Source: Escherichia coli (GTDB lineage: Bacteria > Pseudomonadota > Gammaproteobacteria > Enterobacterales > Enterobacteriaceae). From it: 64,000 bases of DNA. Made by a program: the position numbers. The stretch lies in assembly GCF_030013205.1 (NCBI RefSeq), contig NZ_CP122649.1; one strand, 5' to 3'. Of this stretch, positions 54,001 through 60,000 are shown piece by piece. The first letter of the stretch is position 1, and each line of letters opens with the position of its first letter.

Positions 54001-57000
54001 GTCAGCACTTCCTTCTGAAATAGAAAAGACTCGCATTGATGCGCTTTACTCTGACTTAATCAGTAAGTTGAATACAGTAGGCCTTTTCCCACACAAAGTT
54101 GGTGCTGAAAATTGGCTTTATTGCATGGATAAGTTATTGCATCCGGGAAAAACATCGCGTTGGTCTGAAGGTCATGTTGAAGCTAGCACCATGAGACGCC
54201 TAAACGAGCAGATCAATGTACCGGGTCGAAAATATACAGTGACAGAGAATCATTTCTCATCTACAACGCAGAGCAATGATATTTCTGAGCATCGTTATTT
54301 CAAACAATTATCAGTAGTGAAGTTTCCAGAATTTGTAAACTTTGGCTGCATGTATGAACTTGTAGTTAATTGGTTGAATGGACGTAAAACGATCTTTAGC
54401 CCTTTCATGATAACCCAGACTGTCCATTTCGCCGATCCTTTAAAATTATCAAGAGAAAACGTCAGATATAAGGCAATTACTAACAAACAAGCCAGTATTC
54501 CAACAGTTTTGACGTTTTGTCCAAGATTAAAGGATATGGATAATGATTACATGACGATAACACGCGAACTGGAAGATGGGGCTCGCCTCCTACACAGTTA
54601 TCTGACATTTACTGTAATGGGGAATTCAGCAGTTGATGTTCAGTCTGCCGCAGACCAGTTAAAATCATTTTATCTGGAAAGTCGTGTTAATGTTGCTGAT
54701 GACTCGTACATAGTATTTCCCTCATTTGTTTCAAGCCTGCCGATGTGTAATGACCCAAAGACAATACTAGAACTGGATCGTTTTGAGGTCGTGAGTAATA
54801 CTGGTGCTGCGCACATGACCCCCATATTTGGTCCTTGGAAAGGTAATACGGACAGACCCGTACTTAACCTTGTCTCACGAGAAGGACAGCTGTTGGGGCT
54901 GGATATCTTCAAGACTTCTGCCAGCTATAACATGGTCGTTGGTGCAACGTCTGGTGCTGGTAAATCATTCTGGGTCGCATACATCATTAATAATTATCTA
55001 GGCGCAGGTCCGCGTTCTAATAATCTGATCCATTATCGAGATACTTTTGAGGGATTCAAAAACAATTCTTATGATGCATTTGACCCTGATGGAGCCCAGA
55101 TTTTCGTAGTTGATGTCGGACGCTCATACCAAGGTATTTCGGAACAATATACTAATAGTCAGTTTATAGACTTTGGGAAAAAGCCTGATTTTACGCTAAA
55201 TCCATTCGCATTTTTGACTGATGTGACTGTTGGAGAGCGTGTTTTTGATGAAGCACCTGTCTTTAATGACGATTCAAATAATCATGATGATGATAAGGAT
55301 AAAGTAGCCCAGACCATTATGGTTCTAAACCAGTTAAAAATAATGGCATCTGAAAAAGGAAATATTGACGATTTTCAACAATCGGTCATGCTGCAACTGA
55401 TTAGTGAAGAATATAACGAATCACGTAAAGTTGGACGTACAGGCTCTATTACTGGATTTGCGCGACGCTGTTCTAACCATGAAGATAAGCGTATTAAAGA
55501 TATCGGTGACCAGTTGGGGCAATGGTGTGAAGGAGGGATTTATGGGAATCGCTTTACAGAAAATCTCCCGCCAATAAATTTTGATAGCCGGTTTATTGTT
55601 CTGGAACTTGAAGAATTGAAGGGGACCCCACACCTTCAGACTGTCGTTCTGATGTCGATTATTCAGGCCGCTCAGCATGCAATGTTTATCAAGAAAGACG
55701 GACGCCGCCGGTTGTTCATACTTGATGAGGCATGGGAGTATATCCGTCCGGACAATGCTTCAGGTTCCAGTAATCATTCAAATCAATTTTTCTCCTCTTT
55801 CCTTGAGGCCGCTTGGCGCCGATTCAGGAAAACGAACTGTGCCGGTATTTGTATTACTCAATCCTTTGAAGATTACTTCACCTCATCGGTTGGTCGCGCA
55901 CTAACGGCTAACTCGCCGTGGAAGATCATCATGAAGCAGGAAAAGGAAAGTATTGAAGCCATGAAGGTGAACAACTACTTCTCCACAACTGATGCGGAAT
56001 ATGAGCGTATGAAAAATATTCGAACGGTAAAGCGTGCATTTTCCGAGATGCTCGTACGATTCGAAAATTTCCAGGAGATATGTCGCCTCTATGTAGATAG
56101 AAAAATGGAGCTTTGCTTTACGACTGACAGCACCGATCGTGGAAAACTATGGGAAATCCAAAGCCGACTTGATTGCTCTTACGGCGAAGCAATTGAGATT
56201 CTGTACGAACAGGAAGTTGCGAGCAAATCAGCTGCCTGACGTTTTAAGTTACTGGTTACCTCATTTTGTTTTGACTGAGGTATCCAGTACGTCTTTGAAG
56301 TAAATAGTTGTTAGCTGTCATTGCCTGCCCTCCCCCGAAACAATAGCCCGGGTTAAGAATATCTAGCTCGGATTAAGTCCTCTCAAACCGTCATACATGA
56401 AATTCGATGCCTTTGTCATTCTTCTTTTGAAGGTGAATGAATATGATGAAATTTACTCCAGAATTATTCTCCCTACCAGGCTTTTGCTGTGAAGTTAATC
56501 AGATCAGGTATTATGTTTTGGGTACAAGAACCAACCAAGGGTGGGTGTGGTTTTTGTATGGCAGATACAAACATCATTTTTACGGTTATAATAAATAACC
56601 ATTATATAGATGAATTTATCGTTTTTTCTTTTAAGTCTTTGAAGTGATTGGGTTTAATATCTAGATGATGGTTGTATAAGCTATACGTTAATTAGATTTG
56701 AGAATGCAACTGTTATGCGATGCGTAGATATTGCTAAGGTGAATGGTTTGTTAAAACAACCAAAAAATAAGTAAGATCAGGTCTTATCTACATAATAACT
56801 TAACCATCTAACATTCTGGTTGGAATAAGAAACCATTTTAAGCTTATTCAATAACGAAATTTAACCACTTGAATCGACTGACCATGGAGGGAAGCTGGTT
56901 GCGTACCGTGGCATTTAACCCCCTTAATCGCCAGACCATGGAGGAAAGCTGGTCGTGTCCCGTGGCATTTAACCCCCTTAATCGCCAGACCATGGAGGAA

Positions 57001-60000
57001 AGCTGGTTGCGTACCGTGGCATTTAACCCCCTTAATCGCCAGACCATGGGGGGAAGCTGGTCGGGTACTGTGGCATTTAACCCCTTAATCGGCAGACCAT
57101 GGAGGGATTATTGCCGGGTACCAGGCCATTTAACCACTTACTCGTCTGTACACGATGGGATGCTGGTCGCGTAGCGCGGAATTGCTCCCCTATTCACCAG
57201 TTCTTTGCTAAAGGAAAGCAAGTCTAAAAGGTTTTCCGGCCAAAACTTTTTTTGTTTCACTACAGTTATTCGCCCTTCCGTTCAGCGTGATAAAATATAC
57301 AAAAACGTAGAGGTAACCCATAAAAGTAAAAGAGCTTATAAACCAGCTTAAAAGGCTCGACCCGGATGCGTATGTAGTAGTTGCTGGATTTGAAAACTAG
57401 TGTACTGGACACGTGGCTGAAGCAGATACCATTAAAGAATGCATGACAATTCCTGTACGAGCGGACAGCATGTCAGGTGACCGTACGCTTGCAAAAGATG
57501 GATCACCTTCAGTCTAGTTGAGGTGGGGAGATGACTACCGCACGGAATACTTCGTTAGTGCAATAGACGACACGGATGAATTGGCCTAATTATACGAATT
57601 GCCAAAAAACTCTCTTATTGTCAATTGGGGGTATGGGCAATTCATATTGATTGCCAAATATTTTTTGGGTATTCGGGATGTCCTAACAACAGGATTTGCC
57701 GAATACCCTATTTTTTTGCCAAATATTTCGTCATTCTAAGTCGAGATCCAGGCCGAATATCTTTTAATCTAATCCACTCAATAGACAGATTCTGGTGGGA
57801 TACTTATTGTGTACCGTCGTATTAAACCCACTTAACCGCTAGGGCGTCACGTTGTCCTGTCTGCAAGCCGAGGCAATTTCCCCTTTAGCCAATGACCACG
57901 GTGCCTGCTGGTCGGGTACCGTGGGATTTAACCCCCTTAATCGCCAGACCATGGAGGCAAGCTGGTCGGGTACCGTGGCATTTAACCCCCTTAATCGCCA
58001 GGCCATGGGGAGGCTGGTCGCGTAGCGTGGCATTTAACCCTTTAATCGCCAGGACATGGGGTCATGCTGGTCGGGTACCGTGGTATTTAACTCCCTTATT
58101 CGCCAGACCATGGGGAATGCTGGTCGCGTATCCTGGCATTTAACCCCCTTAATCGCCAGAGCATGGCGGGAAGCTGGTCGGGTACCGTGGCATTTAACCC
58201 CCTTAATCGCCAGCCCATGGGGAGGTTGGTCGCGTAGCGTGGCATTTAACCCCCTTAATCGCCAGGCCATGGAGGAATGCTGATCTCGTAGCGTGGCATT
58301 TAACCCCCTTAATCGCCAGCCCATGGGGAGGTTGGTCGCGTAGCGTGGCATTTAACCCCCTTAATCGCCAGGCCATGGAGGAATGCTGATCTCGTAGCGT
58401 GGCATTTAACCCCCTTAATCGCCAGGCTATGGGGAAGCTGGTCGCGTAGTGTGGCATTTAACCCACTTAATCGCCAGGCCATGGAGAAGCTGGTCGCGTA
58501 GCGTGGCATTTAACCCCCTTAATCGCCAGGCCATGGAGGAATGCTGGTCTCGTAGCGTGGCATTTAACCCCCTTAATCGCCAGGCTATGGGGAAGCTGGT
58601 CGCGTAGTGTGGCATTTAACCCCCTTAATCGCCAGGCCATGGAGAAGCTGGTCGCGTAGCGTGGCATTTAACCCCCTTAATCGCCAGGCCATGGAGGAAT
58701 GCTGGTCTCGTAGCGTGGCATTTAACCCCCTTAATCGCCAGGCTATGGGGAAGCTGGTCGCGTAGTGTGGCATTTAACCCCCTTAATCGCCAGGCCATGG
58801 AGAAGCTGGTCGCGTAGCGTGGCATTTAACCCCCTTAATCGCCAGGCCATGGGGAAGCTGGTCGCTTAGCGTGGCATTTAACCCCCTTAATCGCCAGAGC
58901 ATGGCGGGAAGCTGGTCGGGTACCGTGGCATTTAACCCCCTTAATCGCCAGGCCATGGAGGAATGCTGGTCTCGTACCATGGCATTTAACCCCCTTAATC
59001 GCCAGGCTATGGGGAAGCTGGTCGCTTAGCGTGGCATTTAACCCCCTTAATCGCCAGGCCATGGAGGAATGCTGGTCTCGTACCATGGCATTTAACCCCC
59101 TTAATCGCCAGGCTATGGGGTAATGCTGGTCGGGTACCGTGGGATTTAACCCCCTTATTGCCACATCTATGGAGTGATCCTGCTATGTCGGAAGATTGGT
59201 ATTGTTGATACTTAAGAGGCTTTTGGAAGACTTCAATGAACTGCCAATTGAAATTCAATAATGCAGATATTCCAAAATCTAAGAAAAGAATACAGAACGT
59301 TAGCGTAATAATAGAATTAAGGTTACTATTAAACGCATAACGCTAAAGTATACGCATTATGCGTAAAGTTTACGTATATACGTTTAATTTCACTATTTAG
59401 GTAAAGGGATCGGAAGAGAATGAATCTAATTGATAAGATCGCCCTTGTCGGTCAACGCATGAAGAGCGAGCAGATCTCTCTGAAAGAGTCATTATTGGTC
59501 TCTTCGAGGGTTTCGGTATCGGATGATAGTGTAGACGGTGTTGATCGCCTAATCTATAACCACTGCTTGAATAAAAAAAATCTGTCAGATTTTTTTGGTA
59601 AATCTCGCGTAACTTTTAACAAAATCTTAGCGGATCTTGAAGAAAAAGAACTGGTTGGTGCTCCTATCTACCAGAACAAAAACCATCTCTATACCCGCTG
59701 GGATGTCCAGAAAATAATGGATGCTCTGAACTATCCTCGATATAGCGACTACTACTGTAGCCGTACAATCGTAACGCAGAACCATAAGGGTGGTACGGGG
59801 AAGAGTACAACTTCAGGCGTTCTTGCAGTTGCGGCAGCACTTGATTTGCATCTAAACGCGCGGATACTGTTGATCGAATGGGACCCACAAGGGTCTATTG
59901 GAAGCGGGATGATCCAGAGCGTAGCGGAAGATGATGTTTTCCTGACTGCTATTGACGCCATCTTAGGGGTTTACGAAGAAGACTCAGATTACAGAAAATA

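Follow-up and report, generated by a model that had tools for sequence, protein, structure and literature searches.

The stretch analysed here, a sequence of 64,000 nucleotides from Escherichia coli (contig NZ_CP122649.1, assembly GCF_030013205.1; hereafter the window), holds two blocks of head-to-tail repeats in the interval bounded by trhC, which ends at 56239, and the partition gene parA, which starts at 59420. An earlier note on this DNA had described about 30 tandem repeats of 52-54 bp in two blocks between traC and a type Ia parAB operon. The repeats are indeed present at these positions, with 33 units counted, and the operon is of type Ia with a large ParA, but the gene on the other side is trhC and not traC. 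Across the region, trhC is followed by the repeats, by parA and parB, then by four genes of opposite orientation and finally by parM; this order corresponds to the Tra2/Par1/Par2 region, and Par1 and Par2 are listed as backbone modules of IncH plasmids in a review (PMC11628540). The features of the locus are:

56859..57182 (+): block 1, six tandem 54-bp units
57183..57766 (+): spacer between the blocks, 584 bp, lineage-specific
57767..59197 (+): block 2, 27 tandem units of 51-54 bp, 22 of them with a core at ≤3 mismatches
58404..58425 (+): one example of the core ATTTAACCCCCTTAATCGCCAG, proposed ParB binding module
59198..59419 (+): promoter/operator region of parA, 222 bp, presumed ParA autoregulatory operator
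59420..60673 (+): parA, a 417-amino-acid Walker-type ATPase with N-terminal extension, type Ia
60670..61677 (+): parB, a 335-amino-acid protein of the P1 ParB family, predicted centromere-binding protein

Units were phased by hand on the heptamer ATTTAAC, and Tandem Repeats Finder was run separately on the same region. The phasing assigned 6 units to block 1 and 27 to block 2, all head to tail and with edge-decayed units included. In block 1, for which Tandem Repeats Finder returned a period of 54 bp (56859-57107, 4.6 copies, 89% matches), exact cores start at 56913, 56967 and 57021, while the units at 56859, 57075 and 57129 are decayed. Block 2 (57906-59157 in the same program) is described equally well by periods of 106, 158 and 264 bp (scores of 1879, 1878 and 1939, respectively), and its imperfect units comprise three decayed at the 5' edge, one with a deletion in the C-run and, at the 3' edge, one that is decayed. 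A search of the whole 64-kb window for the 22-bp core ATTTAACCCCCTTAATCGCCAG at ≤3 mismatches gave 25 copies, 23 of them exact, compared to no match in shuffled sequence. All of these copies lie on the + strand, point to parA and are confined to the two blocks. The core is also the most uniform part of the unit: in consecutive units, taken without selection by core, the mean majority fraction was 0.96 in the core columns (n = 22) and 0.86 in the other columns. The whole 3.1-kb stretch was found in at least 18 independent complete plasmids at 99.9-100% identity and is therefore not an assembly artefact. The GC content of the blocks is 0.54-0.55 and that of the spacer 0.41; hence the spacer, previously called AT-rich, is so relative to the blocks but not beyond that, the window as a whole being at 0.47. 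On identical plasmids, RefSeq annotates four to five coding sequences for a 'hypothetical protein' in the array (56869-57174, 58056-58283, 58309-58509 on the - strand, and 58871-59029). With near certainty, such annotations across the array are false gene predictions on centromere DNA that does not encode protein.

The partition proteins link the window to a well-studied plasmid group. ParB is 100% identical to ParB of R27 (NC_002305.1), the IncHI1 prototype; ParA is likewise identical to its R27 counterpart, and R27 bears the same two blocks. The IncHI1 replicon-typing primers, which are aimed at 'parA-parB (AF250878)' (PMC9208507), match exactly at 60280-60300 and 60728-60750 and delimit an amplicon at 60280-60750. 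The window is accordingly assigned to an R27-type IncHI1 resistance plasmid; IncHI2, which was considered as well, was ruled out by this exact primer match and by the IncHI2 ParB, which is only ~72% identical. The type I par system of R27 has been reported as the major stability determinant of that plasmid (PMC4489591). In the operon, parA comes first and overlaps parB by 4 bp. ParA matched NCBIfam ParA families as well as solved structures of Vibrio cholerae ParA2 (7npd, E=6e-33), P1 ParA (3ez2, E=1.5e-8) and P7 ParA (3ez9). Residues 150-327 of ParB match the P1 ParB fragment 142-333 that was crystallised on parS (1zx4/2ntz, E=4e-17), and residues 207-328 match the P1-ParB C-terminal family of Pfam (PF08775, E=1.5e-12). 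The protein further contains the GSRRR motif of the N-terminal domain and a helix-turn-helix (HTH) whose recognition helix reads SHVSVSKR. In its C-terminal dimer/box-B domain, the residue that aligns with P1 residue 288 is an Asp. The operon thus combines the features by which type Ia is recognised, a large ParA with N-terminal extension and a ParB with a P1-type HTH and a C-terminal dimer/box-B domain.

The core was then compared with the parS sites of P1 and P7. It consists of the arm ATTTAA, a CCCCC spacer, the inverted arm TTAAT and the hexamer TCGCCA, which shares the last T of the right arm. In the P1 record, parS is composed of B1 (TCGCCA), A1 (ATTTCAC), a site for integration host factor (IHF), A2 (ATTTCAA), A3 (GTGAAAT, inverted), B2 (TCGCCA) and A4 (ATTTCAC), in this order; box A (ATTTCAC/ATTTCAA) is annotated in both P1 and P7, and B2 of the P7 record is TTCCCA. 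The P1 segment A2-A3-B2 reads ATTTCA, AGG and TGAAAT, with box B (TCGCCA) beginning on the last T of the inverted arm, and the IncHI1 core shows the same order of elements. Its box-A-like heptamer ATTTAAC agrees with P1 ATTTCAC in 6 of 7 positions, it has an inverted partner, and the abutting box-B hexamer is identical to that of P1. Of the P1 boxes, only A2-A3 together with B2 ('parS small') are required for binding of P1 ParB, and box B discriminates species (PMC10999674). As sequence architecture alone, this minimal arrangement is contained in the core, and the IncHI1 ParB belongs to the same fold family of HTH and C-terminal dimer domain as the P1 and P7 proteins. There are also clear differences. 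In the P1 family, parS is a single composite site 3' of parB that is bent around a central IHF site, a layout that the window array does not share, as it consists of 25-33 tandem modules 5' of parA. No IHF site is evident in the IncHI1 units, which are GC-rich (0.54-0.55) and lack an AT-rich IHF-like segment. Furthermore, the arms are separated by 3 nt in P1 and by 5 nt (CCCCC) in IncHI1, and the IncHI1 ParB is only ~27% identical to P1 ParB.

To place the array in a wider context, parAB loci were fetched for ParB relatives and then screened for repeats, so that ten ParB lineages including P1 and P7 could be compared. The relatives with arrays are given below with the identity of their ParB to that of the window and with the handle of the fetched locus:

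R27 (L002), ParB 100%: 54 bp x 5.6 and 52 bp x 21.6, core as in the window
pNDM-CIT type (L004), ParB 83%: 54 bp x 10, core as in the window, spacer sequence different
IncHI2 p33 (L003), ParB 72%: 11-12 copies ~249 bp apart, identical 21 bp, unrelated flanks
Citrobacter pCF1807-1 (L013), ParB with helix SHVSVFKR, identity not computed: 56 bp x 7, core ACTTAACCCCCTTAATCGCCAG
Serratia symbiotica (L008), ParB 47%: 38 bp x 3.6, core TAAACACCCCCTGTTTGCCCAA
Klebsiella Kp84 (L006), ParB 46%: 66 bp x 31 upstream and 2.4 copies downstream of parB, core AAAACAACCCCGTTGTTCGCAG
Klebsiella sp. LY (L007), ParB 46%: 67 bp x 42 upstream and x 14 downstream, core AAAACAACCCCCTTGTTCGCAG

Across the lineages compared, the core is the only conserved part; the units measure between 38 and 249 bp, and 2 to 56 copies are present. 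In a de novo count of exact 12-mers, the core was the most repeated sequence in 7 of the 8 comparison loci; the exception is a Providencia plasmid with two sites (see below). Related plasmids, to which the earlier note had pointed for comparison, do carry repeats or core-type sites together with parAB, and some of them (Kp84, LY, Providencia) also have sites 3' of parB. Its statement that the array is unusually large is borne out against F sopC but not against the relatives, which range from two single sites up to 42+14 units. In the IncHI2 plasmid p33 (L003 3340-6280), the layout looks duplicated, with a core, a special segment of ~230 bp and a block of 4-5 units appearing twice. The Klebsiella arrays (L007 3519-6353 and 9068-10030; L006 3892-5917 and 9194-9349) flank parAB in the same orientation; these loci are situated amid genes for Ig-like-domain proteins and not beside trhC, and L006 is typed as IncHI1B and L007 as IncU.

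With the arms aligned on the C-run, sites and proteins were found to vary together. The arms are TTTAA/TTAAT in IncHI1, IncHI2 and the pNDM-CIT type (and nearly the same in pCF1807), where the recognition helix is SHVSV(S/A/F)KR; they are AACAA/TTGTT in Kp84, LY and Providencia, with the helix xESxRKR, and AAACA/TGTTT in Serratia, with the helix VTSINKR. For comparison, the P1 ParB recognition helix is SQAKVTRA. Position 3 of the arm is T:A, C:G or A:T and position 2 is A:T or C:G, and both arms change together, which is expected of a dimer reading two half-sites. These compensatory changes track the recognition helix of ParB.

A similar pattern emerged for box B. Dabrazhynetskaya et al. (2009) reportedly traced species specificity to hydrogen bonding of residue 288 with base 2 of box B. 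In the alignment, an Asp in the column of P1 residue 288, as in P1 ParB itself, goes along with TCGCCA or TCGCAG in 8 lineages (P1 and seven of IncHI type), whereas an Arg goes along with TTCCCA in P7 and TGCCCA in Serratia. Hence base 2 of box B tracks the ParB residue aligned to P1 288: it is C where the residue is Asp, as in P1, and T or G where the residue is Arg, as in P7. Reading of the second base of box B2 by the Asp is supported by published work (PMC10999674).

The Providencia plasmid, whose ParB is 51% identical to that of the window, allowed a prediction from this relation. Tandem Repeats Finder detected no array in it. As its ParB combines the xESxRKR helix with the Asp, the predicted site had AACAA-type arms with a TCGC box. 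The 17 kb of the locus were searched twice, with a generic pattern of a 5-bp arm, C-run and inverted arm and with a fuzzy LY-type core. Exactly two sites with the arms AACAA and TTGTT around CCCCC, followed by CGCCA, are present in the 17 kb, and they flank parAB: AAAACAACCCCCTTGTTCGCCA precedes parA by 140 bp, and AAAACCACCCCCTTGTTCGCCA follows parB by 170 bp.

The comparative evidence, that is the ParB family, the conservation of the core only and the covariation, strongly supports the earlier proposal of a centromere for the adjacent type Ia parAB operon. We consider it very probable that the two blocks are the parS centromere of the Par1 system of IncHI1 (R27) plasmids, with one P1-like ParB module per unit. 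Each 52-54-bp unit would comprise one 22-bp module, and the rest of the unit would be spacer DNA. The inverted box-A-like arms would be read by the HTH motifs of a ParB dimer and the abutting box-B hexamer by the C-terminal dimer domain. About 25 intact modules could load many ParB dimers over 2.3 kb just 5' of the parAB promoter, and the type Ia ParA ATPase would move the resulting partition complex, so that sister copies of the low-copy ~200-kb plasmid reach both daughters. Selection would keep the core constant while unequal exchange remodels the array. We infer that ParB physically binds the modules, that clamp-type loading or spreading takes place and that many copies are of benefit. Titration of ParB would make a cloned array an incompatibility determinant. 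Incompatibility or silencing, which had been put forward as other possible functions of the array, would then be consequences of ParB loading and not alternatives to it.

The centromere of the F plasmid, sopC, is an array of 12 x 43-bp tandem repeats of ~0.5 kb downstream of sopB, in which each unit contains a 16-bp palindrome without box B. The IncHI1 array resembles it in that a head-to-tail array lies beside the par operon and offers one short inverted-repeat site per unit for an HTH protein of ParB type: its 33 units have one orientation and one core each, and the arms covary symmetrically across the relatives. Extra copies are likely redundant for partition in both cases and likely to act as an incompatibility determinant. 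The two differ in that sopC is located 3' of sopB, whereas the IncHI1 array is located 5' of parA and has a box-B element; in size, as ~0.5 kb compare with 2.3 kb including the spacer in IncHI1 and with a total of ~3.8 kb in Klebsiella sp. LY; and in the binding protein, which is of P1 ParB type and not of SopB type. Thus, the analogy to sopC drawn in the earlier note applies to the tandem array beside the par operon, but the recognition logic is P1-like, with box A and box B. The element is almost certainly of a known kind, a P1-family ParB with a tandem-repeat centromere that is oversized but ordinary. What the covariation suggests in addition is that the two-motif logic of P1 (box A plus box B, with the switch at residue 288) extends to a large sister clade with sopC-like arrays.

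Several points weigh against this interpretation. The sites are upstream of parA, in tandem and without an evident IHF site, which is unlike canonical parS of the P1 family. IncHI1 and IncHI2 share an identical core and have nearly the same recognition helix, and yet the two subgroups are compatible, which is unexpected if the core alone set partition specificity; either the second system, ParMR, or another factor hides the cross-talk, or part of the specificity resides elsewhere. Since 2-7 sites appear to be enough in relatives, a need for about 25 copies is not obvious; more robust ParB loading on large plasmids of low copy number, competition in incompatibility, regulation by ParB spreading or tolerance of slippage are possible causes of the large array. 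In addition, the covariation is based on few classes, four of arms and two of box B with P1 and P7 counted, and the TTAA in the arms of IncHI1 and IncHI2 is self-complementary, so that inverted and direct symmetry are indistinguishable in this class alone.

The array has been remodelled repeatedly. The earlier note had seen an alternating 54/52/52 pattern with a 158-bp period and took it as a sign that a three-unit block had been amplified. The pattern is real but local, as the 158-bp period covers ~2.7 copies at 58404-58823 with the unit types J, K/M and L. Block 2 also contains a 106-bp dimer repeated twice (58192-58403), and the units at 58138 and 58876 are identical to each other; a three-unit amplification can therefore account for part of block 2 but not for the remainder. 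Among R27-type plasmids the number of good cores ranges from 17 to 25. The window and R27 itself differ in this number (25 versus 23) and in their higher-order repeats, and the order of unit types is largely different between them. In p467-MDR (L010, 2316-3214), the spacer is wholly missing and a single block of 17 cores remains, and in pPSJ-29_1 (L011, 4678-5382) IS26 is inserted within block 2. The reshuffling of units, the loss of the spacer and the IS26 insertion therefore indicate repeated unequal exchange and local amplification, by which the array grows, shrinks and homogenises. In other records, IS21 or ISApl1 is present in the array region.

The spacer shows a history of its own. Positions ~57320-57589 are the relic of an open reading frame (ORF) of 89 amino acids that has lost its start codon and acquired two in-frame stops, and the middle of the spacer is 79% identical to the intact ORF in Citrobacter pCF1807-1. 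There, the intact ORF is situated directly upstream of the 7 x 56-bp array and parAB; it is also present in ~110 other plasmids. The intact 89-amino-acid ORF gave no Pfam match, and its PHROG matches were weak and of unknown function. A role of the spacer as a conserved functional element was ruled out, as it is not conserved in the pNDM-CIT-type or IncHI2 plasmids, contains a decayed ORF and is deleted in p467-MDR. The two blocks are one centromere array expanded on either side of a decaying neighbouring gene. Helical phasing was likewise rejected as a general rule: units of 52-54 bp correspond to ~5 turns, but the 38-, 66-67- and 249-bp units of the relatives do not fit.

Different explanations can be given for the size of the array. 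It may be an evolving trait of conflict between plasmids rather than a need of segregation, with large arrays serving as ParB sponges, by which competing plasmids of the same ParB specificity would be destabilised, or as nucleation platforms for spreading that tune the expression of parAB and the neighbouring Tra2 transfer genes. We regard this as possible but unlikely, and consider it because of the site shared by IncHI1 and IncHI2, the range of 2-56 copies, the two-sided arrays and the reshuffling of units in near-identical plasmids. If it were true, something other than the shared site, such as the ParA-ParB interaction or ParMR, would have to set partition specificity between the IncHI subgroups.

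Another explanation, in which one or a few units are the centromere and the array is mainly a ParB sink or spreading platform whose size is selected for strong incompatibility with related plasmids, tuning of parAB autoregulation or Tra2 silencing, seems distinctly unlikely to us. It would be in line with copy numbers of 2-56 among relatives that all keep parAB, with the position of the array abutting the parAB promoter/operator and the end of trhC, and with the rapid turnover of the array. Moreover, one sopC unit is enough for partition of F, and an IncHI1-specific incompatibility determinant other than a replicon was reportedly mapped on R27 by Gabant in 1993. However, this explanation extends the centromere model without replacing it, ParB must still bind the core, and the tolerated IS26 insertion and spacer deletion indicate tolerance and no particular selected size.

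A further candidate for the centromere is a dispersed palindrome. The 15-bp sequence GAAAAGTnACTTTTC occurs at 16 sites in the window at ≤2 mismatches, compared to 0.38 expected:

957, 1075, 7601, 13839, 15116, 19004, 21938, 29085
36045, 41541, 45856, 45899, 46373, 49426, 51735, 62624

Most of these sites are intergenic at the 5' ends of operons, including the Tra2 operon, and a site within an ORF downstream of parB is kept in R27, pNDM-CIT-type and IncHI2 plasmids. The strong over-representation, and the fact that the closest solved ParA is V. cholerae ParA2, whose system uses dispersed palindromic sites, would fit a model in which Par1 uses GAAAAGTnACTTTTC as its actual centromere, comparable to the dispersed sites of N15 and of V. 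cholerae chromosome 2, and the repeats bind another factor or none. We consider this very improbable. The relatives from Providencia, Klebsiella and Serratia, whose parAB loci are not in the IncHI Tra2 context, have no GAAAAGTnACTTTTC at these loci, whereas sites of the core type are found with parAB in every case; GAAAAGTnACTTTTC bears no resemblance to box A or box B; it is found mostly at operon 5' ends, with two sites preceding an orphan ParB-HTH gene; and ParB is of P1 type, with a specificity residue that fits box B of the array. The possibility listed last in the earlier note, with the array as actual centromere and the palindrome as a site for a different protein, is the reading that fits best, given that the palindrome is missing at parAB of the relatives and placed at operon 5' ends.

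That the repeats are a non-functional satellite, iterons, coding repeats or structured RNA merely lying beside parAB, as could be surmised from the short hypothetical ORFs annotated over the array and from its highly dynamic nature, can practically be discounted, since the identical 21-bp core is kept in IncHI1 and IncHI2 despite wholly different flanks, the six frames hold 12-31 stops each and are broken by the 52-bp units, no Rep gene is adjacent and no cores are present near the two RepB-family genes (~31.0 and ~44.4 kb). The units are contiguous, without the unique spacers of a CRISPR array. An Rfam search of the region gave no match, single-strand folding of one and two units was no better than that of shuffled sequence (z of -0.08 to +1.2), and a promoter/terminator scan of the region returned fewer sites than shuffled sequence.

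At least about 1,500 complete plasmids in PLSDB carry a ParB that is ≥60% identical to that of the window. Carriers of this ParB clade comprise IncHI1, IncHI2 and pNDM-CIT-type plasmids, IncHI1B-typed Klebsiella plasmids and Citrobacter MOBH plasmids, and IncHI plasmids are major vehicles of multidrug resistance (PMC11628540 among other sources). An exact ParB module would provide a precise target for anti-plasmid strategies based on curing or incompatibility, would allow partition cross-talk among co-resident megaplasmids to be predicted and would explain the spurious 'hypothetical proteins' annotated over such arrays. R27-type plasmids have been studied since the 1990s, and the role of the locus as main stability determinant is published. 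The R27 Par1 locus of Lawley & Taylor (2003) and the IncHI1 incompatibility determinant reportedly mapped by Gabant et al. (1993) correspond to this locus; the array of the window differs from that of R27 in the order and number of units. In the searchable literature, with the primary R27 Par1 papers outside its scope, we found no description of an IncHI centromere at motif level or of the core sequence; a 2016 'incC' paper on R27 stability deals with a RepFIA-like replicon and not with the array. What is added here, a reading of the site down to its motifs together with the family-wide covariation and the range of sizes, is useful but would not surprise a specialist, nor does it open a new field.

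As mentioned above, two of the palindrome sites lie close to a gene for an orphan ParB-HTH protein. Two such genes are present in the window:

<1-864 (-): orphan ParB-HTH gene, complete in the locus record L015 (2161-3366, -)
38446-39603 (-): orphan ParB-HTH gene

They encode paralogous 'DNA-binding proteins' of 401 and 385 amino acids (35% identity, E=5e-30) with a ParB-type HTH (PF17762, E=3e-5) but no similarity to the partition ParB. The two GAAAAGTnACTTTTC sites are 90 and 210 bp upstream of the gene for the 401-amino-acid protein. Hence, GAAAAGTnACTTTTC looks like the operator of a global regulator and not like the Par1 centromere, and the orphan proteins are possibly candidates for binding it in a KorB-like manner. 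In RK2, the KorB operator sites (OB) are dispersed palindromes bound by a regulator of the ParB family. The similarity consists in a short perfect palindrome that is scattered over the backbone, mostly proximal to promoters, and in a ParB-HTH gene with its own upstream sites. In contrast to RK2, the pairing of protein and palindrome is putative here, neither the orphan proteins nor GAAAAGTnACTTTTC are related in sequence to KorB and OB, and a match to the ParB N-terminal domain is not detectable in the orphan protein.

Finally, the 222 bp before parA are the sole conserved flank of the array, with 84% identity in the pNDM-CIT type, 75% in IncHI2 and similar sequence in pCF1807. They contain nested ACG(C/T)AT dyads at 59329-59387, including TACGCATTATGCGTA at 59351-59365 and ACGTATATACGT at 59372-59383, and Tandem Repeats Finder reports a period of 20 bp with 2.3 copies in this region. 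By analogy with the annotated parOP of P1, these dyads are presumed to be the autoregulatory operator of ParA.

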